From positions 930,001-994,000 of the forward strand of contig NC_086108.1 in the NCBI RefSeq assembly GCF_963921235.1: DNA of 64,000 nucleotides. The letters are read 5' to 3'. A program made the position numbers and the translations under genes. The notes beneath the pieces are model-generated. The model saw only the letters and a list, made by a program, of their open reading frames with translations, searched no databases and was not told the DNA's origin. This document shows, piece by piece, positions 10,785 to 61,482 of this stretch. The DNA is from Mobula hypostoma. Its lineage: Eukaryota. How positions within the stretch are numbered: the stretch's first letter is position 1; the number at the start of each line of letters is the position of its first letter.

Positions 10785-11003
10785 GTCACAGTCTGAGTCC
10801 AGCTCAGGGACGAGGTCACGGTCGCGATCGAACTCGCCTACCCACGAGGAGAAGATCACCTACATCACAAGCTTTGGCGGCAGTGAGGACGAGGGCGGAT
10901 CGATGGCGCAGACTGGGGTGACCTCTGCCAAGGCCCCAATTGGCAGGCATCGGAACTCCAACACGCAGCAGGGCTCTGGCACAGGTCATGCCAGCTCCTC
11001 CCG
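10785..11003 (+). CDS. CLASRP: CLASRP exon, SQSESSSGTRSRSRSNSPTHEEKITYITSFGGSEDE...HASSS(R)
   Basis: Acceptor gttctag|; EEKITYITSFGGS motif. Phase-2 donor cg|gtcggt at 11004 is required for frame with the next exon. Confidence 0.92.
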
Positions 11004-12079
11004 GTCGGTAACTTTCAAAATCTTTCCTTTTCCATTCCCAAAGCCACTGATTTTGCTGCTAGAGGGAAAGGTCAGGACTTCTAAAGAATGAAGGTTTTGC
11101 AGCCAATCATCTCATAGCGTTCAGACAGATTGGGAGAATGGGCAAAGCAGTGGCAGTTGGAGTGCAGTGTGGTCATGCCCTTTGGTAGAGGGAATAAAAC
11201 TGTAGACTATTTTCTAAACAAGGAGCGAATTCAGAAATCGGAGGTGCAAAAGGACCTAAGAGCCCTAGTGCAGGATTCCCTAAAGGTCAACTTGCAGGTT
11301 GCGTCGGTGGTAAGGAAAGCAAATGCACTGTGGGCATTCATTTCAAGAGCACTAGAATATAAAAGCAAGGATTTGATGCTGAGGCTTTATAAGGCATTTG
11401 TAGATTGCTCTTGGAGTATTGTGAGCGGATTTAGGCCCCTTCATCTAAGAAAAGATGTGCTGGCGTTGGCAAAGGTCCAGAGGAGGCTCATGTAAATGAT
11501 CTCGGAAATGAAATGGTTAGCATTTGAATCTGGGCCTGTACTCATTGGAGTTTAGAAGAATGAGGGGAGATCTCATTGAAACCTACCGAACACTGAAAGG
11601 GGTAGATAGAGTGGATGTGGAGAGGATGTTTCCTATGGTGGGGGAGACTTGGACCAGCGGGTACAGTCTCAGAATACAAGGATGTCCCTTTTGAACAGAG
11701 ATGAAGAATTTTTGTTGCCAGAGGATGATGAATCTGTTGAATTTATTGCCACAGACAGCTGTGGAGGCAAAGTTATGGGGTATATTTGAAGTAGAGGTTG
11801 ATACATTCTTGATTAGTCAGGGTGTTAATGGTTTCAGGTAGAAGGAAGGAGAATGGGGTAGAGAGGGAAAATAAATCAGCCCTGATTGAATAGCAAAACA
11901 GATTCGATGAGCTGAATGTCCTAATTCTGCACCTGTGTTCTTTGATGTATAACCTTGCCCTGAGAAATGGCAGCCTCTTGAACGGTGCAGATTGTTTGCA
12001 TTAACGAGCCGAGAAGATTAGGGCAATTGATACCAAACATGGCTTTTTAAAGCATCATCATCATAGAGAGAAGGTCAAG

Positions 12080-17000: not shown

Positions 17001-19738
17001 TCGTAATAGCCATTTCAACCCTGGGAAAAAGCCTCTTGCTATCCACACGATCAATGCCTCTCATCATCTTATACACCTGTATACGGTCACCTTTCATCCT
17101 CCATCGCTCCAAGGCAATGGGACAGTCTGCAGTTCAACTTCTAAACCTAAGAGGTTCTGCATATGCTGGGAATCTTAATGCTGGAGGAACTCAGCAGGTC
17201 AGAGAGTATCTATGGAGAGGAATGGTTATAGCCCAAAGGAAGGAAGTGGGCAAAATCTAGAATAAGTGTTTGATGGCTCTGGACCTGTACTCACTGGAAT
17301 TGAGAAGAATAAGGGGTGGCCTCATTGAAACCTATCGAATGATGAAAGGCCTCGATAAAGTGGATGTGACGAGGATTTTTCCTATACTGGGGAGTCTAAG
17401 ACCAGAGGACACAGCGTCAGAATAGAGGGGTGTCCCTTTGGAACAAAGATGAGGAATTTCTTTAGCCAGAGAGTGGTGAATCTGTGGAATTCCTACCACA
17501 GATGAGGAGGCCAAGTCATGTGGTATATTCATTAGTTATCGTGTGTTATCTGTTCTACTGTGCTTTAGATTCTGGTTTGGAGAAATATTGTCTTGTTTCT
17601 ATATACATTATAACCATATAACAATTACAGCACGGAGACAGGCCATCTCGGCCCTTCTAGTCCGTGCCAAACTCTTACTCTCACCTAGTCCCACCGACCT
17701 GCACTCAGCCCATAACCCTCCATTCCTTTCCTGTCCATATAGCTATCCAATTTAACTTTAAATGACAACATCAAACCTGCCTCAACCACTTCTGCTGGAA
17801 GCTCGTTCCACACAGCTACCACTCTCTGAGTAAAGAAGTTCCCCCTCATGTTACCCCTAAACTTTTGCCCTTTAACTCTCAACTCATGTCCTCTTGTTTG
17901 AATCTCAATGGAAAAGGCCTATCCACGTCAACTCTATCTATCCCCCTCATAATTTTAAATACCTCTATCAAGTCCCCCCTCAACCTTCTACGTTCCAAAG
18001 AATAAAGACCCAACTTGTTTAACCTTTCTCTGTAACTTAGGAGATGAAACCCAGGTAACATTCTAGTAAATCTTCTCTGTACTCTCTCAATTTTGTTGAC
18101 ATCTTTCCTATAATTCGGTGACCAGAACTGTACACAATACTTCAAATTTGGCCTTACCAATGCCTTGTACAATTTTAACATTACATCCCAACTCCTATAC
18201 TCAATGCTCAAATTTATAAAGGCCAGTATACCAAAAGCTTTCTTCACCACCCTATCCACATGAGATTCCACCTTCAGGGAACTATGCACCATTATTCCTA
18301 GATCCCTCTGTTCTACTGCATTCTTCAATGCCCTGCCATTTACCATGTATGTCCTAATTTGATTAGCCCTACCAAAACGTAGCACCTCACATTTATCAGC
18401 ATTAAACTCCATCTGCCATCTTTCAGCCCGCTCTTCTAACTGGCCTAAATGTCTCTGCAAGCTTTGAAAACCTACTTCATTATCCACAACTCCACCTATC
18501 TTAGTATCATCTGCATACTTACTAATCCAATTTACCACCCCATCATCCAGATCATTAATGTATATGACAAACAGCATTGGACCCAGTACAGATCCCTGAG
18601 GCACACCACTAGTCACCGGCCTCCAATCTGACAAACAGTTATCCACCACTACTCTCTGGCATCTCCCATTCAGCCACTGCTGAATCCATTTTACTACTTC
18701 AATATTAATACCTAATGATTGAACCTTCCTAACTAACCTTCCGTGTGGAACCTTGTCAAAGGCCTTACTGAAGTCCATATAGACAACATCCACTACTTTA
18801 CCCTCGTCAACTTTCCTAGTAGCCTCTTCAAGAAATTCAATAAGATTTGTCAAACATGACTTTCCACGTACAAATCCATTTTGACTGTTCCTAATCAGAC
18901 CCTGTCTATCCAGATGATTATATATACCATCTCTAAGAATACTTTCCATCAATTTACCCACCACTGACGTCAAACTCACAGGCCGATAATTGCTAGGTTT
19001 AGTCTTAGAACCCTTTTTAAACAATGGAACAACATGAGCAATACGCCAATCCTCCAGCACCATCCCCGTTTCTAATGACATTTGAAATATTTCTGTCAGA
19101 GCCCCTGCTATTTCTACACTAATTTCCCTCAAGGTCCTAGGGAATATCCTGTCAGGACCCAGAGACTTATCCACTTTTATATTCCTTAAAAGCGCCAGTA
19201 CTTCCTCTTCTTTAATCATCATTGTTTCTATTACTTCCCTACCTGTTTCCCTTACGTTACACAATTCAATATCCTTCTCTTTAGTGAATACCGAAGAAAA
19301 GAAATTGTTCAAAATCTCCCTCATCTCTTTCGGCTCCACATATAGCCGTCCACTCTGATTCTCTAAGGGACCAATTTTATCCCTCACTATCCTTATGCTA
19401 TTAATATAACTGTAGAAACCCTTTGGATTTAGTTTTACCTTACTTGCCAAAGCAACCTCTTATCTTCTTTTAGCTTTTTTAATTCCTTTCTTAAGATTCT
19501 TTTTACATTCTTTATATTCCTCGAGCACCTCATTTACTCCAATTTGCCTATATTTATTGTAGATCTCTCTTTTTTTCCGAACCAAGTTTCCAATATCCCT
19601 TGAAAACCACGGCTCTCTCAAACTTTTAACCTTTCCTTTCAACCTAACAGGAACATAAAGATTCTGTACCCTCAAAATTTCACCTTTAAATGACCTCCAT
19701 TTCTCTATTACATACATCCTTCCCATAAAACAAATTGT

Positions 19739-31405: not shown

Positions 31406-31954
31406 GCCATTCCTTCTCCATTCCTTCTCAGTGCTGAAGAAGAGTCTTGGCCAGAAATGTTGACTGTTTATTCATTTCCATAGACGCTGCCTGACCTGCT
31501 GAGTTCCCCCAACATTTTGTTTGTGTTGCTTTAGAAATTTATGACACCGGGGTGATTTTATTTATTTATTTAGTGATCCAGCGTGGTAACAGGGCCTTGT
31601 GGCCCAATGGCACCCAATTTCATCCTACTAACCCATACATCTTTGGAATGCATAAGGAAACTGGAGTTCACGGACAAAACCACACAGTCACAGGGAGAAT
31701 ATACAATCTCCTTCCAGACGGCAGCAGAAATGAACCTGGGTTGCTGGTGTAATTGTAGCTTTACGCTAACTGCTGCCCATGTTATGTGTGGGTAGTTAAT
31801 GTAGGCGTAAATGGTGGTGTAGTACATGAAAATCTATTCAGTGTACAGTCTGCGTTGGAGTGGAAATCGGATTTGGGGGCAGTTTCCACCGTAATCATCT
31901 ATGTATTTGGCTGCTCCTGTGATGCTGTCTTAAAGCATTTCTCCTTCCCCCGAG

Positions 31955-32158
31955 GTCGCGGAGTCACTCGCGTTCGGACGACCGTTACCGCAGAAGCAGC
32001 AGGGGAGGCTACAGCTTGAGTCGACGCAGGAGCAGCAGCAGCCGGAGCAGCAGCGGCAGCCTGAGCCGCTCGCAGAGCCAAAGCAAGTCTCTGTCCCCCG
32101 TGAAAGAGAGCCTGGGGAAGGTGGCTGCCTCACCTGCCACCAGCGAAAAACTGAAAAA
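31955..32158 (+). CDS. CLASRP: CLASRP RS-domain exon, SRSHSRSDDRYRR...AASPATSEKLK(K)
   Basis: Acceptor ttctccttcccccgag| (GAG), donor aa|gtacga; 204 nt, phase 2 to 2. Confidence 0.9.
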
Positions 32159-32372: not shown

Positions 32373-33720
32373 GTGTACAGCCTTGGTTTCCATATTGTGT
32401 GAGGGATGTCAAGGCACTAGAGAGAGTTCAGAGAAGGGCAGCTAAACTTATTCCAGGTCTGCAGGGTATGAGTTATGAAGAAAGATTGAAAGAATTAAAT
32501 CTTTTTACCCTAAGTAAATGTAGAAGGAGAGGAGACATGATAGAAGTGTTCAAAATCATGAAGGGTATAAGTAAACTGGATGCCAGCTGCTAGTTCAAAA
32601 TTAATCCATTATCGAGGACACGGGGCCATAAGTGGAGACTGGTTAAAGGGAGATTTCAGACTAATCTCAGGAGGCATTCCTTTACAGTGAGTTGTGAACA
32701 CATGGAGCAAACTATCTAGTTGAGTAGTTGAGAGTACTTTCAAATCTAAACTCAATAGTTATTTAAACTAACAACGTGAATAGGACTTTGGAAAGCTTTG
32801 TTGGGCCGAATGGCCTGTTCTTGTCAAAAACTTTATAATGTTCTAGAATACTGGATCTAAGGACTAGAAGTATTATTGGACTTTGTGGGCGTTCAAATTC
32901 CTTATTTGCGTGATCAATCATCCAAATAGAATCTCCACATTAAAGGCAAATAATACTTCAGAATTAGTAATTGACCAATAGTAAGTAACACTCTAGAACC
33001 CTAATAGAGTCATAGAAAGCTACAGCATAGAAACAGGCCCTTTGGCCCATCTAGTCAATGCCGAATCATTGAAGTTGCCTACTGTCATTGACCTGCACCG
33101 GGACCATAGCCTCCTTACCCCTGCCATCTGTTTACCTTTCCAAACTTCTGAATGTTGGAGTCGCAGCTGCCACTTACGCTGACAGCTTGTTCCACACTGC
33201 CTCCACCCTCTGAGTTTTCCTTCATGGTCCCCGTGAATCAGGGGTTCCCGGTCCTTTTATATCATGGACCCCTACTATTAACCAAGAGGTCTCTAGGCCC
33301 CAGGTTGGGAAACCCTGCCTTACACATTTCACCTTTCAGCTTTAGTTGCAGTCTCACCCAACTTCTGGAAAAAGCCTGCTTGCATTTACCCTATCTATAT
33401 ACCTCTATCAAATCTCCCCTCAGTTTTCTGTGATCTGCTTATTTTGTATCTGTATGCCAAATAGCTTCATATGCCAGTTGGTCAGTATCTATATTTAACT
33501 AATCCTAAACAATTCTGCTTAAAAATTACATTTTTTAAAATTCAAATGTTAGAACAGTTTGGTGATAGGGGCCAGGCTGTTCTCTTTGTGTGCAACTAAA
33601 TAGTGTGTTTGAGGATCGAGTGTAAGTTTTCAGAGACCGGTTCATCGGCGATGACACTGTGATTGTGTTAAGTTGACCCTCTGTCTCTCTTCCCCCCCCC
33701 CCCTTTTTTCTCATTCCCAG

Positions 33721-33760
33721 GTCTGACACTCCTGTGGGTAAAGAGTCCGGAGCTGCCAAA
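33721..33760 (+). CDS. CLASRP: CLASRP exon, SDTPVGKESGAAK
   Basis: Long polypyrimidine tract ending cccag|, donor aaa|gtcagt; 40 nt, phase 2 to 0. Confidence 0.93.
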
Positions 33761-34879
33761 GTCAGTAAGAATTTTATCTCACCTCCGTTAAACACAGCCC
33801 CTTCTGAAAACCTCACAGAAACACTTATGCAGCCTCAAGTAGTCTTTCAGCAACTTTTAGTCGCTTTCTAACCTGAAATTGTCCTTGATGCTGTGTTACT
33901 GGTAACACAGCAGAGAGCACGCGAGTTTGGCAGCACCTTAAACACGTTCCGCTTTCATAAGGTCCTTTGTGTTTCCAAACGGTGCCAAGAACTCAAAGTG
34001 CTAAATTTTGTCTTTCCTATGAGAATCTGAAATTCTAAAATGTTGCACCAAATGTAAATTGTTATAACTTTTCACTGTGCTGCTGCGGGTTTTTCCATCC
34101 TCTGACCATTGCCTGCTGTCTATAGTTTGCAAGGACATGATACGTTTTGCTATGTCAACTGTCACAATGCTGTTACATGTGATTATCATTAGGGGGCTCT
34201 GTGGAAAAGGTTTATAAAATGCATCTCAAATATCCTTTATTTCAAAGATACACTATTTAAGATTGATTGAGATACAGCACAGAATAGGCCCTTCCAGCAG
34301 TGCCGCCCAGCAATCCCCTGGTTTAATCCTAGCCTAATCCAGGGACAGTTTACGACGACCAATTCACCTACCAATCAATGCGTCTTTGGACTGTGGGAGG
34401 AAACCAGAGCACCCGGAGGAAACCCACGTGGTCACAGGGAGAGCGTACAAACTCCTTACAGGCAGCGGTGGAAGTTGAATCCAGGTCACTTGTACTATAA
34501 AGTGTTGTATTAACCACTGCACTCCCTTATGTCACTGATTGTGTGCAAGAGTAGAAATACTTTACAAGTGTCGCCTGAATAATTCCAAGTTGCTATTTAT
34601 TTCTGGTGATTTTACATTATTTATTCGTGGATTATGGCAGATTTACACAACATAAGGCATTTGGCTTAATGAAGAGCGGCATAGTAAGTTACCGCAATGC
34701 TATGATAGCACCAGCAACCTGGCTTCAATTCCCACCACTGCCTGTATGTTTTCCCAGTGACGATATGGGTTTCCTCTGGTGCTCTGGTTTCCTCCCACAG
34801 TCCAAAGACATAGGCTTTTAGATTAATTGGTCACATGGGTGTGATTGGGAGGCACAGGCTCGTTGGGCCAGAAGTGCTT

Positions 34880-35300
34880 GTTACTGTACTTGTTGCCCAG
34901 TACGCCGCTGACATTTAGGGCAGGAATGAAGGTCGTCCATCTCTGGTGGTGTTTGGGGCTTCCTTCATCGTATCAGTAGCTTCCTCTCAGTTTTCAATAC
35001 TGTCACTCAAGCAAATCCCAAGTGGAGACTCAGGAATACTGTTGCACTCAGTTGTAGGATTCTTTAGTGCTGTTTCTGTAACAGTTTTGTTTGACCAGTC
35101 GGGGTTGTTAGCCCTGAGTTAAACCCCTGAACCTGGAGGACCGGTGGACCACTCTTAGTCTGGCCTGTACCCTTTGACCTATTTGGCATGGGTGACCCTA
35201 CCAAGAGCATAAAGCCCTAACTCCAGCTAAAACAGCTCTCTGGATCATTTGGGCATGCAAGCCTTCAAACTCAACAACAAGGTTGTGGTCCCTTTGGAGG
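34880..35300 (-). mobile_element. RTE-clade 5'-type fragment
   Basis: cctgaacctggaggacc...ggcatgggtgaccctacca motifs recalled from RTE-1 elements. Partial reverse copy at about 60370-60630. Confidence 0.45.
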
Positions 35301-36479
35301 CCTGATACTGTGCTGCTTCTCTAAATCTGAAAGTTTCAATTAGTGCCACGCTTTTGAAGATTTAAAAAATAAAAATTAACTTTATTTGTCGCATGTACAG
35401 AGAAATATGCTGTCTGTGTCAAACCAAATCAGTGAGGATTGTGTTGGGCAGCCCTCTAGTGTCGCCACATTTCCGGTGCCACAACTCACTAACCCTAACC
35501 TGTGTGTCGTTGGAATGTGGGAGGAAACTGTGTCGTGTGGAGGAAGCCTAAGTGGTCATGGAGAGAAAATACAAACTCCTTACAGACGGTAGCGGATATC
35601 GAAACCCACATTCCAAAGACATACAGATGGGTTAATAGGTAAATTATCACATGGGTGTAATTGGGTGGCACGGACTCATAGGTCTAGTTACCATGCTGTA
35701 TCTCTAAATTAAACAAAACAATACAAAAAAAGTCTTCTGAGTTGGACAAACTCAAGTCCTTGTGTTCCGTCAATGGTTGGTGCTGTTACTGTGTGCTGCC
35801 ACGTAACAACTATATCAAGAGGGAAAAACCTGATTCATGTTCTCAAGTTGTCTTGTGACATAGGAAGCCATTTGGCACATCTGTGATCCTATGCCGGCTC
35901 TCCTGGCAATCTCATCACTCCCATTCTTCCTTCATTTCCCTTTCATGTCCACAGCTTTACCTAGTTCTTTTGCTACCCACTACACTAGGGGCAACCTGCA
36001 GTAACCAGTTAGTTTCTTTTATGGAGATGCAGCATGGAATAGGCCCTTCATGCTGTGCTGCCCAGCAAACCCCCAAATTAACCCTAGCCTAATCACAGGA
36101 CAATTTACAATGACCAATTATCCTACCAACTGGTTGGTCCTTGGACTGTGGGAGGAGACCAGAGCACCCAGAGGAAACCCACACGGTCCTTACAGGCAGC
36201 AGCAGCGATTGAAACCGGGTCGCTGGTACTGTAAAACTTTCTGCTAACTATTATGCTACTTGCTGCCCACAAATGACAGGAAATCCGCACGGTCACTGGG
36301 AGAACATGTGAACTCTGCACAATATCACTGGATGTCAGGACTGAACCCAGGTTGATTGAAATGTTCAGCTGCCTGTATCATTAACACTTACTCTTGGGCA
36401 GATCTTGGTACAGTTAGCAAGCCGTTACTGTGTGTCTTTCATGCAGAGATACTTGAGCAAGGTTTAAGTAAATATATTA

Positions 36480-36725
36480 GGATGATTCAGTTAGCATAAC
36501 ACTGTTACAGCACTAATGACCCAGGTTCAATTCCCACTGCTGCCTGTAAGGAGTCTGTATATTCTCTCTGTGACTGTATGGGTTTCCTCCGGGTGCTCCA
36601 GTTTCCTTCCACGGTCCCGAGACGTATGAGTTAGTATGTTAATTGATCAGGAGTGTAATTGAGTGGCGTCGGCTCATTGCAGAGCAAGGCCCTCTTACCG
36701 TGCTGTATCTCGAAATAGATAAATG
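36480..36725 (+). mobile_element. tRNA-derived V-SINE (HE1-like)
   Basis: B-box ggttcaattcc followed by V-domain gagtYtgtaYRttctc...gggtttcctccgggtgctcc.gtttcct. Other copies at about 26010-26280(+), 31570-31780(-), 34270-34520(-), 34670-34890(+), 35420-35610(-), 36025-36350(-), 41880-42040(+), 55590-55860(+), 58710-58900(+), 60770-61010(+), 61040-61300(-). Confidence 0.75.
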
Positions 36726-37071
36726 GTCAACTGTGCCCAAGAAACCGTCCAGAGAGAATTGGGTATTGAGGTAATTGCAATATGCACAGATGTTGCATAG
36801 AAGGAGGTTTGGATGCCATTAATAGAGGGAGAAGCAGAATGCGACTAAAGTTTCAGACTGCAGTGTTGAATAAGGGTTGGGTTCCTGAATAGCTACAGGG
36901 TTAAGTAATATCGGGATGCTAGGGCTATGTCAGTGATGTGAAATGCCCGTCCTACCAGCAATTAGTATAGTAAATAATACAAAAAACTGGAAGCAGTCAG
37001 CTCAGGTAGCAGCTGTGCAAAGAAAAAAAAAGTAGTTTACATTTCAGGTCTGTGATCGTTTGTCTGGTAGG

Positions 37072-37710
37072 ACCATAAGACATAGGAGCAAATTAGGCCC
37101 CAAGGCGCATCGAGTCTGCTCTACCATTCCATCATGGCTGATTTAATATTCCCCTCAACCCCATTCTCCTGCCTCCTCCCTGTAACCTTTCATGCCCTGA
37201 CTAATCAAGAACCTATCAACCGTGGAAGTTCACGAGAGTGATCCTGGGAATGAAAGAGTTAATGCACCTTATGTGGAGCGTTTGATGGCTCTGGGCCTGT
37301 ACTTGTTGATATTTAGAAGAATGGGGGTGGGTGGGAATCTCATTGAAACTAATAAAATATTAGAATGCCTAGATAGAGTGGACATAGAGAGGATGCTTCC
37401 TCAAGTGGGAGAGCCTGGGACCAGAGAGGACAGCCTCAGAACACAAGGACATCGGTGTAGAACAGAGATGAGGAGGAATTTCTTTAGCAAAAGGGTGTTG
37501 GGTCTGTGAAATTCATTGCCACAGACAGCTATAGGGGCCTAGTCATTGGGGGTAGTTAAAGCGGAAGTTGATAGGTTTTTGTGTTAAAGGTTTTGGGGAG
37601 AAGGCAGAAGAATGGGGTTGAGAGGAAAAATAAATCAGCCGTGATGGAATGGTATGGAGCACACTCAGTGGGCCGAATGGCCCAATTCTGCTGCTGTGTG
37701 TTATCATCTT
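37072..37710. mobile_element. Two CR1 3' ends joined head to head
   Basis: 37072-37221 is a minus-strand CR1 3' UTR. 37222-37710 is a plus-strand CR1 3' part ending in the same UTR, giving about 150-bp imperfect inverted arms. Confidence 0.7.
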
Positions 37711-38764
37711 AACCACTCTTCCTGTTGATATAAAAGACCACATGGCACTACTGGAGAAAATCGGAGGCGTTCTCCACTGCCACTTGGCTAACACCATAAT
37801 GCTGGTTGAGCTTACTTGCAAATCAGCTGCTGTACCTCCAAAATTGCAGCACCAATTACACTTCCCTGGCATCTAAAGAATACAACTGCAGGTTCCTTTC
37901 TTTTACATTCTAGAGAGGGGCTTGTGCTCAGCTCTCCAGCCTTGCGAATCCTATCCAGCTGTCACTCACTGCATCTGTGGAGGAGAGAGCGATGTCTGGA
38001 TGTCAGATTCTTGATGCACAGTATTGAGCTGAGCCCCAGAGATATCTGACCCTGACTACCCCATTGCCACTAAAATTTTGTGCTGTCTCAACATGGGACA
38101 CTACAGCACAGTCTATAAGTTGTGCTGACCTTCTAAGTCACTGTAAGATCAATCTAACCCTTCCACCCCCACCCCCACATAGCCCTCCATTTTTTTTTTA
38201 TCACCCATGTGCTTATCTAAGAGACTCTTCAATATCCCTAATGTATCTGTCTCTACCACCACCCCTGGCAGGGTGATCCACACACCCTCTGTAAAGAAAA
38301 ACGTACCACTCACATTCCCCTTCAATCATCTTAAAATTATGCTGCCTCACATTGGCCAACTCTGCCTTGGGGGAAAACGTCTGTGACTGTCCGTGCGATC
38401 TGTGCCTCTTACTATCTTTATCAAGTTGCCTCTCATGCTGTTTCGCTCCCACGAGAAAAGCCCTAGCTCGCTCAACTTATTCTCATAAGACATGCTCTCT
38501 AATCCATTTAGCATCCTGGTGAGGTGAATTTAATATACCTGGGCAGTCCATGCTCACTGACTCTATACCTACCCATAGTGCCCTCACCGTAATACCTGTA
38601 ATCCGGTGTTCAAATCCAGGTCCAGGTCTGTCAGTGGTAGCTTTTGTTGCCAAGACGTTAGAAAGCAAAACAGGTTTTGGTGTTTGGTGAAATCCCAGAG
38701 AGCTGTTTGTGCTCAGCAGCAAGATCCCAATGGGATGGGCTGCTCAGGACTGCGATATGTCGTA

Positions 38765-39363
38765 GCAGCACATGCAGAATACTGGAGGAACTCAGCAGGT
38801 CAGGCTAAGTGGATTTTCGGCATCTGATGTTTGAAATATGTCGCACCTTTGTGGATGGTGGGGAGGAGTAAACATTTCTGGCTGAGCTCCTTCATCAGGA
38901 TTGAATGCCTTATATTCCGGCTGGGCATGTCCATCGATCTTTCGAATTTCTTGTAATTCCTCCCCCCGTTCCCTTCTCTCTTTCTCCATTTCCCATTCTG
39001 GCTCCCCCTCACCTGCTCATCACCTTCCTCTGGTTCCCCTCCTTCCCTCCCTCCTGTGGTTCTCTTTCCTCTCCTACCAGACAACCTCTTCCTCCCATCA
39101 CCTCCCAGCTTTTTACTTCATCTCCCCACCCACCCACACACCTTCCCCCTCACCTGGTCTCATCTATCACCTGCGAGCTTATACTATTCCCCTCTCCCTC
39201 ACCTTCTTATTCTGGCATCTTCCCCCTGCCATTCCAGTCCTGATGGAGGGTCTCAGCCTGAAATGTGGACTGTTTATGCCTCTCCATAAGCCTGACTTAC
39301 TGAGTTCCTCCAGCAATTTGTGTGTTGCTCCCTTTTCCCAGCATCTGCAGAATCTCTTGCATT
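38765..39363 (+). mobile_element. Older Penelope insertion with inverted 5' arm
   Basis: Inverted pLTR piece 38765-38900, then forward UTR, degenerate hammerhead at 39235-39272 and tail. TSD tgcgatatgtcgta (38751-38764) / tgtaatatgttgta (39364-39377). Confidence 0.7.
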
Positions 39364-39486
39364 TGTAATATGTTGTACCCTTGTGGTTGTGCCCCTGTGG
39401 GATAGGTCCAGCTGGAATCTCCTTGAAGGGCTGGGTGTTATCCTCAAAGTTCAAAGTACATTTGTTATTTAAGTATGTATGCATTA

Positions 39487-40098
39487 TGAGGGGTGATTGC
39501 TAAGTTCGTGGCCTAAGGTAGATGGAGTCAATTTTAGAAAACCTAGCACATACATTTTTCAACATAGTACCCTCCTACATATACATACTTAGTCCAGCGG
39601 TCATGGAGTATACAGATCCCTTCTTTGTAGAAGTGGTCCACAGCAGGAGTGATTGATAAGTAAGGTAGAAGGAGATGAGTTATTAACTTCAAACTTTCTG
39701 CATTATCACTCAGAGTTGAACCGCACGTGCATGTAACGAGAGTGTCTTGGATCTCCAGGTGGTCCACAATAGGGATGATTGATAAGTTCGTGCCCTAAGG
39801 TAGAAGGAGATGAGTTATACCGCTTTCGTTACATGTACGTGCAGTTCAGCTCTTTGAGTGAAAATGCAGAAAGTTTGAAGTTAATAACTCATCTCCTTCT
39901 ACCTTAGGCCACGAGCTTATCAATCACCCCTGCTGTGGACCACTTCTGGAGGTCCAAGATGCCAGCTTCTACAAAGAAGGGATCCGTATGCTTCACGACC
40001 ACTGGACTAAGTGTCTAAATGTAGGAAAAATGAATGTGCTAGGTTTTCTAAACTTGACTCCTTCTACCTTAGGCCACGAACTTATCAATCACCCCTTG
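39487..40098. mobile_element. Mariner-derived fold-back MITE with nested TIR copies, TA TSD
   Basis: TIR gggtgattgataagttcgtggcctaaggtagaaggag at both ends and three more times inside. Arms encode FYKEGI..LHD.WTK..., a mariner transposase C-terminus. TA at 39485-39486 and 39099+1000 (40099-40100). Confidence 0.85.
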
Positions 40099-41446
40099 TA
40101 TACAACTTTGAGGTTTGACTCCAGACAGGCAGACACAAAACAAAGAAACCCAAAAGAGCCCATTTTTAAAAAAAGATTACCAAGTGCACAGAGACAAAAA
40201 GCCAAATCGCGCAAACAATAATTGAATCTAATTCAAGTTTAATTGTCATTCGTCCATACATGAATACAGCCAAAGGGGCAGCATTACTCTGGGGCAAGGT
40301 GCAAAACACAGTACCAACAGTTACACACAGCACAAAGCATGCATAAGATAGCAAGCTCAAATGGTATTGCAATCATGCAATAAAAGTCAAAAGCTCATGC
40401 TATCTATCCACAGTTGACCACATTAGAGACCGTCTCCTGCCGAGCAAACGTTTGGGGGCAGGGGCAACACCAACTCCAGCCTGGATGCCATGCCACAGCG
40501 CACCAGCCCTGACGACACTGGTTTGAAGCATAAAAATCAGCAAGCAAATAGTGTTCTGAGGCCCACAAAGAGAGTACATCCCCACACCCTTAGATCAGCG
40601 CAGAGCCAAGCAGCAGGCTGAATCGACCTGTCCCTCGCCTCAGGGCCCAGACGTGCTGACTTTTTCCATCTGGCCCGGTGCCCAAGTCATCATTCAAACT
40701 TCGGTTTCAGTGGCTTGGGTAATGCTCTGGGACTCGGACCCCACCGCCTTGATTCAACCTGTACGTGTCCTTTCCATTTGGGCCTGAAGGGGTGGGCCAG
40801 ACCTGGTGCTGCGATCGTTGGTATTTGCATCATTGGCGTGTGTGGAGTTTTCCACACTGCTTGTTGCAGCTGCGCTGTGACTCAGCACTGCTTGCTGGCT
40901 GTAACTTGGAACACGATTGTCACTAAATAATAACATATTATTAGGATTGTAGAAAATTGAAAACCAGCGTACCATACATCTTCATAACAACGTTGCAGCT
41001 CTATAAAATCCGAGTTGGACCACACTTGGAGTATTCTGTTCAGTTCTGGTCACCTCATTTATAGCAAGGATGTGGAAGCTTTAGAGAGGGTTCGGAAGAG
41101 ATTTGTCCAGCTGCTGCCTGGTTGAGCGAGCTAGGGCTTTTCTTTGGAGAGGAGGAGGTAGAGGGGTGACTTGATAGGGGTGTGCAAGAAGATGAGAAGC
41201 GTAGATTGAATGGGTAGCCAGAGTCTTCTTCCCAGAGTGGAAATGGCTAATAAGAGGGGGCATGATTTTACGGTGAATGGAGGAAAGTATCGGGGAGATG
41301 TCAGAGGTAAGTTTTTTTTTAATAGGGAAAGTGGTGGGTGCTTGGAACATCACGGGCCAAAAGGTCTACACTGTGCTATAATATTCTGTTTTTCTATGTT
41401 TCTGAATGTTTTGTATGTAATAAATCCTTTGTTTGCATTTTTCTAG

Positions 41447-41452
41447 CATATG
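41447..41452 (+). CDS. CLASRP: Candidate alternative 6-nt microexon CATATG (His-Met) of CLASRP
   Basis: tcctttgtttgcatttttctag|CATATG|gtgagc; lies in a phase-0 intron so frame is kept; TGC at -13..-11. No transcript evidence. Confidence 0.55.
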
Positions 41453-41672
41453 GTGAGCCTGTAAATTTAATTTGAAATCTCGGGACTTAAGTGTCCACGG
41501 CGTGCTCCTGTTGTCCTGCACCTCAGCTGGTTGAGACATTTATAGTTTCCAGAAAGAAAAAAAATGAGCACAATTCTCTCCAGCTCCCCTCGGGCCGATG
41601 CTACAGTGTTTAATACTGTCTGAACCTGAAGCATTGTTTCCCCTTGTAAATGTTACTTCGTTTCTCTTGCAG

Positions 41673-41733
41673 CCGAAGCTAACGCCACAGGAGAAACTGA
41701 AGCTTCGCATGCAGAAGGCACTGAATAAGCAAT
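41673..41733 (+). CDS. CLASRP: CLASRP exon, PKLTPQEKLKLRMQKALNKQ(F)
   Basis: Acceptor tttctcttgcag|, donor t|gtaagc; 61 nt, phase 0 to 1. Confidence 0.97.
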
Positions 41734-42442
41734 GTAAGCACGCGTGTCCTGGGCTGCAGGGCTCCCCTGCGGTGTTATTGCTGCACGGAAGCTGCCCTAT
41801 ATCGCCAAGGGGATTCGGGGGACTCTGAACAAAGAGGGCAAGTCACCATTTAGAGTCTGTGATCATGTAGAGTCCTAGAGTGCAATGCTTTATCATACCA
41901 GCGACCTGGGATCATTCCTACTGCTGCCTATAATGAGTTTGTACGTTCTCCCCGTGACCACATGAGTTTCCTCCGGGTGCTCCGGTTTCCTCCCACAGTC
42001 CAAAGATGTACCGGCTGGTAGGTGAAATGCTCATTGTGCAGCAGCAGGTCATTCCAATACAGAATAATAAAAACTATGATTTACAGTGTGTGTTTATATG
42101 TATATGTGTACTTTTAATTAAATTTAACATTATATAGATACATAATGATAAATTAACTAAATAATGCAAAAAGGAAGAAAAATTAGTGAAGTAATGTTCA
42201 TCTGTCAGAAATCTGCTCAAGTCTTTGGTGATGTACCAGATCTCCTCAGACTCTGAATGACATGTAGCCACTGTCTTCAAATCACATTTAATCCATGGTG
42301 GGTGTTAGTAGAGTGACAAAGCCTGCAGGGTTGAGTCAGGTGGGGATGGCAGAGGCATGAATCACGACTGTATTATCTGGGGGTGGTAACTTGTCACGGA
42401 TGCAGGCGTGACCTGTTTGTTTTTTTTTTGTTTTGTCGGCAG

Positions 42443-42501
42443 TTAAAGCAGACAAGAAGGCTGCACAGGAGAAACAGCTACAGCAGGAGCAGGAGCGACA
42501 G
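42443..42501 (+). CDS. CLASRP: CLASRP exon, KADKKAAQEKQLQQEQERQ
   Basis: T-rich tract ending cggcag|, donor cag|gtaggc; 59 nt, phase 1 to 0. Confidence 0.96.
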
Positions 42502-42979
42502 GTAGGCCTCCAGAGTAGCAGGCACTCCCACCACCTACGTCTCTGGTTACACCATAGAACAGTATGGGCCTTTCAGCTCACAGTGTGGTGCAGAACTTCA
42601 ACACTCTCCAAGATCTGTCTCACTGTTCCCTCCTGCATAGCCTTCCATTTTTCTATCACCCATGTGCCTATCTAAGAGTCTCTTAAATGTCCCTACTGAA
42701 TCTCCCTCTACCACTAGGACGTCCCATGCACCCACCACTCTGTTTAAAACAAACCTACCTCTGACTCCCCCCACCCTCTGATACTTCCCTATAAACACCT
42801 TAAAGTTCTTGTGTATTACCTATTTCCTTCCTGGGAGAAAGGTCTTTGGCTGTCCATGCCTCTTATCATATTGTGCACCCCTGTCAAGTCACCATTATTG
42901 ATGTAACACACACACTGTGCTGGAGGAACTCAGCAGGTCAGGCCAAAGCAATACACATAAAATGCTGGAGGAACTCATG

Positions 42980-45900: not shown

Positions 45901-48205
45901 CGCTCTCAATGGAAAAAGCCTATCCACATCAACTCTATCAATTCCCCTCATAATTTTAAATACCTCTGTCAAGTCCATCCCCCCTCAACCTTCTACGCTC
46001 CAAAGAACAAAGACACAATTTGTTCAACCTTTCTCTGTAACTTAGGTGCTGGAATCCAGGTAACATTCTAGTAAATCTTCTCTGTACTCTCTCTATTTTG
46101 TTGACATCTTTCCTATAATTCGGTGACCAGAACTGTACACAATACTCCAAATTTGGCCTTACCAATGCCTTGTACAATTTTAACATTACATCCCAACTCC
46201 TATACTCAATGCTCTGATTTATAAAGGCCAGCATACCAAAAGCTTTCTTCACCACCCTATCCACATGAGATTCCACCTTCAGGGAATTATGCACCATTAT
46301 TCCTAGATCCCTCTGTTCTACTGCATTCTTCAATGCCCTGCCATTTACCATGTATGTCCTTTTTTAATTAGTCCTACCAAAATGTAGCACCTCACATTTA
46401 TCAGCATTAAACTCCATCTGCCATCTTTCAGCCCACTCTTCTAACTGGCCTAAATCTCTCTGCAAGCTTTGAAAACCTACTTCATTATCCACAGCACCAC
46501 CTATCTTAGTATTATCTGCATATTTACTAATCCAATTTACCACCCCATCATCCAGATCATTAATGTATATGACAAACAACATTGGACCCAGTACAGATCC
46601 CTGAGGCACACCACTAGACACCGTCCTCCAATCTGATAAACAGTTATCCACCACTACTCCCTGGCGTCTCCCATCCAGCCACTGTTGAATCCATTTTACT
46701 ACTTCAATATTAATACCTAACGATTGAACCTTCCTAACTAACCTTGCGTGTGGAACCTTGTCAAAGGCCTTACTGAAGTCCATAGACACAACATCCACTG
46801 CTGTACCCTCGTCAACTTTCCTAGTAGCCTCTTCAAAAAATTCAATAAGACTTGTCAAACATGACCTTCCACGCACAAATCCATGTTGACTGTTCCTAAC
46901 CAGATGATTATATATACCATCTCTAAGAATATTTCAGTTAATTTACCCACCATTGACGTCAAACTCACAGGCCGATAATTGCTAGGTTTACTCTTAGAAC
47001 CCTTTTTAAACAATGGAACAACATGAGCAATACGCCAATCCTCCGGCACCATCTCCGTTTCTAATGACATTTGAAATATTTCTGTCAGAGCCCCTGCTAG
47101 TTCTACACTAATTTCCCTCAAGGTCCTAGGGAATATCCTGTCAGGACCCAGAGACTTATCCACTTTTATAATCCTTAAAAGCGCCAGTACTTCCTCTTCT
47201 TTAATCATCATAGTTTCCATAGCTTCCCTACCTGTTTCCCTTACCTTACACAATTCAATATCCTTCTTAGTGAATACCGAAGAAAAGAAATTGTTCAAAA
47301 TCTCCCCCATCTCTTTTGGTTCCACACATAGCTGTCCACTCTGATTCTCTAAGGGACCAATTTTATCCCTCACTATCCTTTTGCTATTAATATAACTGTA
47401 GAAACCCTTTGGATTTATTTTCACCTTACTTGCCAAAGCAACCTCGTATCTTTTAGCTTTTCTAATTTCTTTCTTAAGATTCTTTTTACATTCTTTATAT
47501 TCCTCGAGCACCTCAATTAGTCCGTGCTGCCTATATTTATTGTAGATCTCTCTCTTTTCCGAACCAAGTTTCCAATATCCCTTGAAAAACATGGCTCTTT
47601 AACCTTTCCTTTCAACCTAACAGTAACATAAAGATTCTGTACCCTCAAAATTTCACCTTTAAATGACCTCCATTTCTCTATTACATCCTTCCCGTAAAAC
47701 AAATTGTCCCAATCCACTCCTTCTAAGTCCTTTCGCATCTCCTCAAAGTTAACCTTTCTCCAATCAAAAATCCCAACTCTGGGTCCAGACCTATCCTTCT
47801 CTATAATTATATTGAAACTAATAGCATTGTGATCACTGGAGCCGAAGTGCTCCCCAACACATACCTCTGTCACAGACCTATCTCATTCCCGAACAGGAGA
47901 TCCAACACTGCCCTTTCTCTGGTTGGTATCTCTATGTATTGCTGCAAAAAACCATCCTGCACACATTTCACAAACTCCAAACCAAAAAGCCCTTTTACCA
48001 TATGGGCTTCCCAACCTATGTGTGGAAAATTAAAATCTCCCACAATCACAGCCTTCCCTTTTGAGCTTCAGGGCCAGACTGAGTTCCAGAAGCTTACCCT
48101 CCCCCCCTGCAGCAGTGCACAAAACGAAGTTAGGGGGACGGTCACAGGGGTGCTCTCCACTATCTGACGTTCCCCCTTCCCTCTCCTGGCAGTCACCCAT
48201 TTATC
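42980..48205 (-). mobile_element. Old deleted CR1 (42980-45600 and 48050-48205) with a younger CR1 nested at 45601-48050
   Basis: Host has RT and ORF1-esterase remnants (LGDSIVRG). The nested copy has an (atatggtt)n tail and closely matches the 17610-21000 element. Confidence 0.88.
45020..45131. repeat. About 56-bp tandem duplication inside CR1
   Basis: catcccc(c)tgccatattagattgaactacgccaaacagctctagtaaacctgaccac occurs twice. Confidence 0.9.
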
Positions 48206-49669: not shown

Positions 49670-52600
49670 GTTAGAAACATGGAAAACCTACAGCACAATA
49701 CAGGCCCTTCAGCCCACAAAGCTGTGCCGAACATGTCCTTACCATAGAAGTTACCTAGGGTTACCCAGAACTCTCTATTTTTCTGAGATCCATGTACCTA
49801 TCCAGGACTTAAAAGACCCTATCGTATCTGCCTCCACTACCGTTGCTGACAGTCCATTCCACGCACTCACCACTCTCTGCGTTTAAAAAAAACTTACTCC
49901 TCACATCTCCTCTGTACCTAGTTCCAAGCACCTTAACACTAAGCCCTCTCGTGCAAGCCATTCCAGCCCTGGGAAAAAGCCTCTGACTATCCACACGATC
50001 AATGCCTCTCACCATCTTATACACCTCTATCAGGTCACCTCTCATCCTCCGTCGCTCCAAGGAAAAGAGGCCGAGTTCACTCAACCTGTTCTCATAAGAC
50101 ATGCTCCCCAATCCAGGCAACACTCCTTGTAAATCTCCTCTGCATCCTTTCTATGGTTTCCACATCCTTCCTATAGTGAGGTGACCAGAACTGAGCACAG
50201 TACTCCAAGTGGGGTCTGACCAGGGTCCTATATAGCTGTAACATTACTTCTTGTCTCCTAAACTCAATCCCACGATTGATGAAGGCCAATGCACTGTATG
50301 CCTCCTTAACCACAGAGTCAACCTGCACAGCAGCTTTAATTGTCCTATGGACTCGGACCCCAAGATCCCTCTGATCCTCCCCACTGCCAAGAGTCTTACC
50401 ATTAATACCATATTCTGCCATCATATTTGACCTACCAAAATGAACCACCTCACACTTATCTGGGTTGAACTCCATCTGCCACTTCTCAGTCGAGTTTTGC
50501 ATCCTATCAATGACCCGCTGTAACCTCTGACAGCCCTCCACACTGTCCACAACACCCCCAACCTTTGTGTCATCAGCAAATTTACTAACCCATCCCTCCA
50601 CTTCCTCATCAAGGTCATGTATAAAAATCACGAAGAGCAGGGGTCCTGGAACAGATCCCAGAAACACACTACTGGTGACCGAACTCCATGCAGAATATGA
50701 CCCGTCTACAACCACCCTTTGCCTTCTGTGGGCAAGCCAGTTCTGGATCCACAAAGCAATGTCCCCTTGGATCCCATGCCTCCTTACTTTCTCAATAAGC
50801 CTTTCAGGGGTACCTTGTCAAATGCCTTGCTGAAATCCATATACACTACATCTACTGCTCTGCCTTCATCAATGTGTTTAGTCACATCCTCAAAAAATTC
50901 AATCAGGCTCGTAAGGCACGACCTGACTTTAACAAAGCCATGCTGACTATTCTTAATCATATTATGCCTCTCCAAATGTTCATAAGTCCTGCTTCTCAGG
51001 ATCTTGTCCATCAACTTACCAACCACTGAAGTAAGACTCACTGGTCTATAATTTCCTCGGCTATCTCTGCTCCCTTTCTTGAATAATGGAACAACATCCG
51101 TAACCCTCCAATCCTCCAGAACCTCTCCTGTCCCCATTGATGATGCGAAGATCATTGCCAGAGGCTCAGCAATCTCCTCCCTTGCTTCCCACAGTAGCCT
51201 GGAGTACATCCCGTCTGGTCCCAGTGACTTATTCAACTTGTTTTCCAAAAGCTCCATCACATCCTCTTTCTTAATATCTACATGCTCAAGCTTTTCAGTC
51301 CACTGTAAGTCATTCCTACAATTACCAAGATCCTTTTCTGTAGTGAATACTGAAGCAAAGTACTCATTAAGAACCTCTGTTATCTCCTCTGGTTCCATAC
51401 ACACTTTTCCACTGTCACACTTGATTAGTCCTATTCTCTCACGTCTTACCCTCTTGCTCTTCACATACTTGTAGAATGCCTTGGGGTTTTCCTTAATCCT
51501 GTCTGCCAAGGTGTTCTCATGGCCCCTTCTGGCTCTCCTAATTTCTTTCTTAAGCTCCTTCCTGCTAACGTTATAATCTTCTAGATCTCTATCATTACCT
51601 AGTTATTTGTACCTTTCATAAGCTCTTCTTTTCTTCTTGACTAGATTTACAACAGCCTTTGTACATCACGGTTCCTGTACCTTACCATCCTCTCCTTGTC
51701 TCTTTGGAATGTATCTACACAGAACCCCACACAAATATCCCCTGAATATTTGCCACATTTCTTCTGTATATTTCCCTGAAAACATCTGTTCCCAATTTGT
51801 GCTTCCAAGTTCATGCCTGATAGCCTTATATTTTCCCTAATAGAACATAGAACAGTACAGCACAGTACAGGCCCTTCGGCCCACAATGTTATGCCGACCC
51901 TCAAACCCTGCCTCCCTTATAACCCCCCACCTTAAATTCCTCCATATACCTGTCTAGTAGTCTCTTAAATTTCACTAGTGTACCTGCCTCCACCACTGAC
52001 TCAGGCAGTGCATTCCACGCACCAACCACTGAGTGAAAAACCTTCCTCTGATATCCCCCTTGAACTTCCCACCCCTTACCTTAAAGCCATGTCCTCTTGT
52101 ATTGAGCAGTGGTGCCCTGGGGAAGAGGCACTGGCTATCCACTCTTGTCTACTCCTCTTAATATCTTGTATACCTCTATCATGTCTCCTCTCAACCTCCT
52201 TCTCTCCAAAGAATAAAGCCCTAGCTTCCTTAATCTCTGATCATAATGCATACTCTCTAAACCAGGCAGCATCCTGGTAAATTTTCCTCTGTACCCTTTC
52301 CAATGCTTCCACATCCTTCCTATAGTGAGGCGACCAGAACTGGACACAGTACTACAAGAGTGGCCTAACCAGAGTTTTATAGAGCTGCATCATTACATCA
52401 CGACTCTAAAACTCTATTCTTCGACTTATGAAAGCGAATACCCCCGATAAGCTTTCTTAACTACCCTATCCACCTGTGAGGCAACTTTCAGGGATCTGTG
52501 GACATTTACCCCCAGATCCCTCTGCTCCTCCACACTACCAAGTATCCTGCCATTTACTTTGTACTATGCCTTGGAGTTTGTCCTTTCAAAGTGTACCACC

Positions 52601-57114: not shown

Positions 57115-57161
57115 GAACGGGAGGACGAGCTGCGAGCAATGGCTCGGAAAATTCGCCTGAA
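57115..57161 (+). CDS. CLASRP: CLASRP exon, EREDELRAMARKIRL(K)
   Basis: Acceptor ttcctttcag|, donor aa|gtaatt; 47 nt, phase 0 to 2. Confidence 0.96.
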
Positions 57162-61399: not shown

Positions 61400-61482
61400 G
61401 GAGAGGGAACGCAGAGACAAGGAGCGAGATGAGTGGGAGAAGGAGTACCCGAGGAGAAGTCGCTCTTCCTCGCCGAGATACG
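61400..61482 (+). CDS. CLASRP: CLASRP penultimate coding exon, ERERRDKERDEWEKEYPRRSRSSSPRY
   Basis: Acceptor tttccttag|, donor g|gtgcgt; 83 nt, phase 2 to 1. No terminal exon seen in the window. Confidence 0.93.

Follow-up and report, generated by a model that had tools for sequence, protein, structure and literature searches.

A conserved 4-nt tandem splice donor in CLASRP of the ray Mobula hypostoma and the likely fates of its frameshifted product

The closest described system is the tandem donor of human and mouse CLASRP that gives the long and short forms ClaspL and ClaspS (Bortfeldt 2008, PMC2423196), where the same 13 bases are found as in the ray locus described here. In the human EST counts of that study, 6-7 mRNAs used the +4 donor, located four bases past the in-frame donor, vs 9 that used the in-frame site, and human RT-PCR showed splicing from the +4 site to the following exon. 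ClaspS was described as lacking the third RS domain, with a stop that had "apparently avoided NMD". The same work reported a conserved human flank longer than 120 nt and identified +4 as the most frequent human alternative-donor offset; the words "zebrafish", "fugu" and "chicken" are absent from its text. Both mammalian proteins were detected by antibody with differing nuclear locations, according to the account of Katsu 2002 given in PMC2423196. The tandem donor itself is already known in mammals and has been in print since 2002/2008. Our literature search, with subscription papers beyond its scope, found no report of the CLASRP tandem donor outside mammals and no paper on regulation of the +4 ratio by the CLASRP product or CLK.

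Signals of NMD are also on record. In PMC4233243, a CLASRP transcript annotated as NMD, ENST00000391952, has an endocleavage peak and belongs to the relaxed target set; CLASRP is found there on the relaxed sheet only, with three further CLASRP transcripts under other ids. In PMC7354994, a zebrafish clasrp transcript is up 3.5-fold in upf1 mutants (q 7e-4), in a row annotated protein_coding with the NMD feature "unclear". The human and zebrafish signals provide support at the gene level and are not tied to the +4 junction. ENST00000391952 is presumably the +4 form. CLASRP was missing from the searched supplements of PMC8361881, PMC8055015 and PMC4288159 (the last searched in part), and the sections covered of PMC10474993 and 10.1101/2022.01.11.475943 held nothing further on CLASRP. 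To this record we add an extension to cartilaginous fishes and the frame logic that connects the +4 donor with skipping of the next exon; both are modest additions, and neither was found in print in this search.

Gene identity and the two donors

The DNA analyzed, referred to here as the window, is a 64,000-nucleotide stretch of Mobula hypostoma contig NC_086108.1. Splicing its ten CLASRP exons by coordinates produced an open frame that matched Mobula hypostoma CLASRP (P0022) at 359/359 residues, and 358 residues of M. birostris CLASRP matched the same spliced frame. The DRY_EERY domain (PF09750) was identified in P0022 with an E value of 2e-42, encoded by exons upstream of the window, and the window gene is assigned to this family because its spliced product equals P0022 at 359/359. 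The traits of a CLASRP orthologue, RS tracts and a conserved charged C-terminal helix, are present. The features around the tandem donor are collected in Table 1.

Table 1. Positions of CLASRP exons, donors and related features in the window
Feature	Position	Strand	Remarks
RS-rich CLASRP exon preceding the 40-nt exon	31955..32158	+	
40-nt CLASRP exon (SDTPVGKESGAAK)	33721..33760	+	last codon AAA = Lys537; human exon 15 counterpart
In-frame donor GTCAGT, leading to full-length ClaspL	33761..33766	+	joint 33760>41673 equals P0022 at 359/359
GTCA extension retained with the +4 donor	33761..33764	+	identical in human SFRS16 E15
+4 donor GTAAGAAT, leading to frameshifted ClaspS or to an in-frame form with the next exon skipped	33765..33772	+	
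Conserved intron flank	33761..33805	+	read-through peptides vs window intron frame
61-nt exon (PKLTPQEKLKLRMQKALNKQ when read in frame; frameshifted when joined to the +4 donor)	41673..41733	+	
TAA that ends the +4 form prematurely	41726..41728	+	
59-nt exon	42443..42501	+	acceptor of the +4/skip form; junction 64 nt past the +4 stop
47-nt exon	57115..57161	+	junction 111 nt past the +4 stop
83-nt exon	61400..61482	+	junction 194 nt past the +4 stop; final coding exon beyond the window

The acceptor of the 61-nt exon lies immediately before 41673, and that of the 204-nt RS-rich exon (31952-31954) reads GAG, not CAG or TAG. The introns are filled by reverse-transcriptase-like frames on the - strand (17879-19459, 46364-47598 and 50092-51602), which we take to be LINE-type repeats. 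A cluster of short inverted repeats is also found at 39489-40096, within the intron between the 40-nt and 61-nt exons, with arms of 32-72 nt and complementarity of up to 97%.

At the end of the 40-nt exon, window 33752-33772 reads ...GCTGCCAAA/GTCA/GTAAGAAT, which places two GT donors 4 bases apart (AAA/GTCA/GTAAGA) with exon ends at 33760 (in frame) and 33764 (+4). The peptide ahead of the junction is identical in human P0197 and P0199, and Lys537 is unchanged in 30/30 aligned proteins. Each donor matches U1 at 7/11 positions, with a U1 duplex energy of -4.5 kcal/mol at the +4 donor vs -3.1 at the in-frame donor; the U1 end used for these pairing figures is our assumption. Equal or slightly better pairing at the +4 site agrees with the preliminary description of this DNA, which had proposed that gtaaga competes with the in-frame gtcagt. 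The site that it called "distal" does exist; in the wording of PMC2423196, gtaaga is the proximal donor. A GT at +5/+6 is ordinary, occurring in 3/11 window donors; continuation of GTNNGT as GTRAG was found in just 5/251 cases on the + strand of the window. The exon-final Lys codon (33758-33760) is AAA in ray and human, the only two species compared, although AAG would make a stronger in-frame donor there and is the more frequent Lys codon of CLASRP (16 vs 11 for AAA).

Splicing 33764>41673 by coordinates gives Val-Thr at the junction followed by EANATGETEASHAEGTE-stop (41675-41728), which reproduces the peptide and the TAA earlier claimed for the +4 frame. The +4 form contains 556 aa vs 643 aa for the full-length protein, with 19 new residues before the stop. 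The four junctions that follow lie 5, 64, 111 and 194 nt from the stop, and the three later ones lie farther off than the 50-55 nt of the NMD rule, as expected for the NMD-competent stop that had been suggested. The AlphaFold model contains one helix, residues 542-608 (67 residues, pLDDT about 88-91), which is the element predicted best and begins five residues past the junction at Lys537. Loss of the charged C-terminal helical region had also been part of the preliminary description, and the translation together with the model puts the whole helix past the junction. The +4 form is accordingly predicted to lose the entire modeled C-terminal helix along with the last RS stretch.

A further tandem donor, CCG/GTCG/GTAACT, lies upstream (11003/11007; window 11001-11013), and its flank is also conserved. 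The intron frame there begins with SVTF, as do the terminal stretches of the teleost-like assembled proteins P0263, P0264 and P0266 (SVTS in eel P0237), and use of its +4 site would lead into a hydrophobic frame and then a stop.

The donor pair and the shifted-frame tail across vertebrates

Among 280 proteins fetched, the junction anchor was present in 233 and absent from 47. The anchored proteins comprised 196 in-frame records, 18 with a +4 tail, 6 with +4 plus a skip, 4 with intron read-through and 9 others. The 18 were obtained from 21 rows starting with V by removing P0074 (other exon) and P0252, P0255 and P0253 (other acceptors) and adding P0223 from the skip bin. They originate from fishes (sharks, two bichirs, electric eel, cyprinids, mackerel and lungfish) and from tetrapods (frog, tortoise, crane, eagle, pika, hare, degu and human), and 17/17 tested tails agree throughout with the +4 reading of an in-frame peptide from the same species or a close relative. 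The five +4/skip records besides P0024 are from shark, caecilian, turtle and eel. Human KAI4043326.1 (P0197) terminates in VTQADASGEAETEDAEGAEQAVQGG, the ending that the preliminary description had given for a mammalian isoform in the same +4 frame. The accompanying suggestions of conservation to mammals and of jawed-vertebrate age are supported by the 18 records from sharks to human and by the same 13 bases in human.

The read-through records allowed the intron flank to be compared with the window intron frame. Agreement was seen at 13/15 residues for P0080 (skate-like), 5/6 for P0265 (mackerel-like), 8/20 for P0248 (carp) and 7/20 for P0183 (bat). VSKN starts all four (4/4), as it does the window intron, which needs GTNAGYAARAAY or an unlikely TCN serine, and 12 intronic bases therefore appear to be held. 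The basis for donor and flank conservation is PMC2423196 together with these peptides, the window being the sole vertebrate genomic DNA considered. Judged from these sequences, the +4 tandem donor has existed at least since jawed vertebrates arose, because +4 tails and VSKN run from sharks and skate to mammals. The +4 form was found in 0/4 hagfish records, too few to date its origin in a protein set without lamprey, and in 0/7 Xenopus tropicalis records, which is no evidence of loss. One match to the donor pattern in a metagenome contig was rejected as chance since it lies in a bacterial frame, presumably a ribosomal-protein-like one.

The tail encoded in the shifted frame shows a mean identity of 0.55 vs 0.94 for the same DNA read in frame. 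Its length varies from 18 to 25 across records, and 57/77 residues permitted by synonymous change were observed. A functional acidic tail was considered and rejected, as net acidity of at least 5 is expected from CLASRP codon bias with a probability of 0.115 (0.025 under uniform codons) and the bichir tails are neutral or basic; the acidity mentioned in the preliminary description is not a conserved property. The lack of a stop before residue 18, observed in 17/17 records, has a probability of 0.76 per lineage under the same codon bias. Nothing in the aligned tails points to selection on their sequence. Because the tail drifts and its acidity reflects codon bias, it is most likely the loss of the C-terminus or of the mRNA that matters, not the tail.

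Use of the +4 donor in rays

In order to look for use of the +4 donor, contigs of four public ray-like runs were compared with window 33400-42600; the RNA status of these runs is presumed, with X5 marked as probable DNA. Among the pieces listed, contig pieces start exactly at 33735 in X2 and X5 (2/4 runs, from two studies and two organism codes) and end exactly at 41702 in X2, X5 and X6 (3/4 runs), the latter fitting the acceptor. A 31-mer graph simulation placed the acceptor end at 41702 and showed that an intron-side start at 33735 needs use of the +4 donor, the in-frame donor alone giving 33731. The word length of 31 was taken from tool texts and confirmed by the acceptor end. Because the starts at 33735 fit the simulation and DNA alone would be without such breaks, use of the +4 donor in rays is indirectly shown, and the contig starts speak neither to its share nor to its acceptor. 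The target joints were absent among the 15 joints listed for this region, with 870 more in which interspersed repeats dominate. P0005 and P0029, two shark-like proteins assembled from reads, end in the +4 tail, and the M. hypostoma RefSeq model P0024 joins via the +4 donor.

The unique parts of intron 33765-41672 are covered by contigs at a depth of 4-50 in all four runs, and the assembled proteins P0080 and P0265 terminate within this intron, indicating possible intron retention. The mouse and human intron lists of PMC4281565 each contain three high-coverage CLASRP introns, of which this one may or may not be part.

Candidate roles of the +4 site and comparison with known systems

We favor a dosage switch that works mainly through NMD, with a probability of about 0.6. 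The overlapping U1 sites, four bases apart, would make use of the two donors mutually exclusive, with the productive donor kept weak (AAA exon end, C at +3) beside an equal or slightly better frameshifting donor. A large share of transcripts would take the +4 site, as its sequence and the indirect signs of its use suggest. The main role of the +4 site would be to withdraw transcripts from the full-length pool, with most of this mRNA probably decayed and any that escapes yielding truncated ClaspS. Factors that adjust the balance between the two donors probably bind the conserved intron flank, plausibly as part of SR-protein/CLK feedback.

The +4 site may instead make a stable truncated ClaspS, differently located or dominant-negative, with NMD weak or incidental. 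Such a protein would keep DRY_EERY and the RS tracts without the C-terminal helix and the third RS stretch, and the two antibody-detected proteins with different nuclear locations (Katsu 2002, as recounted in PMC2423196) and the plentiful +4 mRNA in human ESTs argue for it. The donor directly precedes helix 542-608, the best-predicted element. A function through helix loss would fit a drifting tail. The 17/17 tails without a stop before residue 18 also agree with a stable protein, although codon bias leads one to expect as much at 0.76 per lineage. Three junctions more than 55 nt downstream of the stop and the NMD signals at gene level in PMC4233243 and PMC7354994 weigh against it, and we consider a mainly protein-based role possible but rather unlikely. 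A switch mainly through NMD and a working truncated protein can both hold.

Another explanation sees the +4 site as retained for the sake of transcripts that leave out the 61-nt exon (33764>42443), whose frame it restores, with the frameshifted form as a by-product. The product of this joint is in frame, 19 residues shorter and without the start of the helix; it is open throughout and shows 0 mismatches to RefSeq XP_062919548.1 (P0024, M. hypostoma), and the in-frame donor combined with the skip gives a frameshift. The joint is present in six records (P0008, P0024, P0037, P0075, P0221 and P0229). However, 4/6 are from genome-project gene predictions, which would favor an open frame, and the two RefSeq models are predictions as well. 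It occurs in 0 Logan (assembled-read) proteins vs two with the frameshifted tail and in no mammalian record, and human RT-PCR joins the +4 site to the next exon, which makes frame restoration an improbable main role. Still less probable is a neutral by-product of the consensus GT at +5/+6, or splicing noise. The rank of +4 among human alternative-donor offsets and the GT at +5/+6 in 3/11 window donors are in keeping with noise, but bases +7 to +12, scarcely needed by the first donor, are held from ray to bat, U1 pairing of the +4 site at least equals that of the in-frame site, the human EST counts are near equal and the conserved human flank exceeds 120 nt. Conservation largely refutes this explanation.

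The NMD-based dosage switch could be part of a wider arrangement, which we put forward tentatively and regard as doubtful. It would be a three-output switch of at least jawed-vertebrate age, yielding full-length CLASRP, a form that is truncated or bound for NMD and, with the next exon skipped, an in-frame form whose helix is shortened. CLASRP would regulate its own abundance by 4-nt shifts (33760/33764 and 11003/11007) and retention of the same introns, under CLK control and with no poison exon. A 4-nt donor choice that shifts the frame and has persisted since the shark/bony-fish split is under selection, and the freely drifting new tail indicates that this selection favors loss of the C-terminal helix or of the mRNA and does not act on the tail. 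The old question about ClaspS, protein or NMD substrate, becomes testable with existing data, and the tandem donor offers a clean natural reporter of U1/U6 choice between overlapping donors.

Similar to human and mouse ClaspL/ClaspS, the ray carries AAA/GTCA/GTAAGA at an exon ending in ...GAAK, and its short form is without the third RS domain. The ray differs in that its stop falls in the first exon past the junction after 19 new residues, where the mammalian stop follows 25, in its 7.9-kb intron and in the in-frame +4/skip model annotated in a Mobula species. The pair also resembles A5E-delta-4 tandem donors (GTNN/GT) in its 4-base spacing, its frameshift and a stop that precedes the last junction by over 50 nt, a position shared by 78% of A5E-delta-4 stops. 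Use of both donors, which defines that class, is seen for the in-frame donor in protein identity and indirectly for the +4 donor in the contig starts, P0005/P0029 and P0024. Unlike most A5E-delta-4 donors, which combine a strong major site with a weak unconserved minor one, the CLASRP pair is balanced and held across jawed vertebrates. It is like the AS-NMD switches of SR and SR-related genes in that an RS-domain splicing regulator carries a conserved stop-introducing event with a conserved flank and gene-level NMD signals. Unlike the switches of SR genes, CLASRP uses a 4-nt donor shift with no poison exon, and a truncated protein has been reported.
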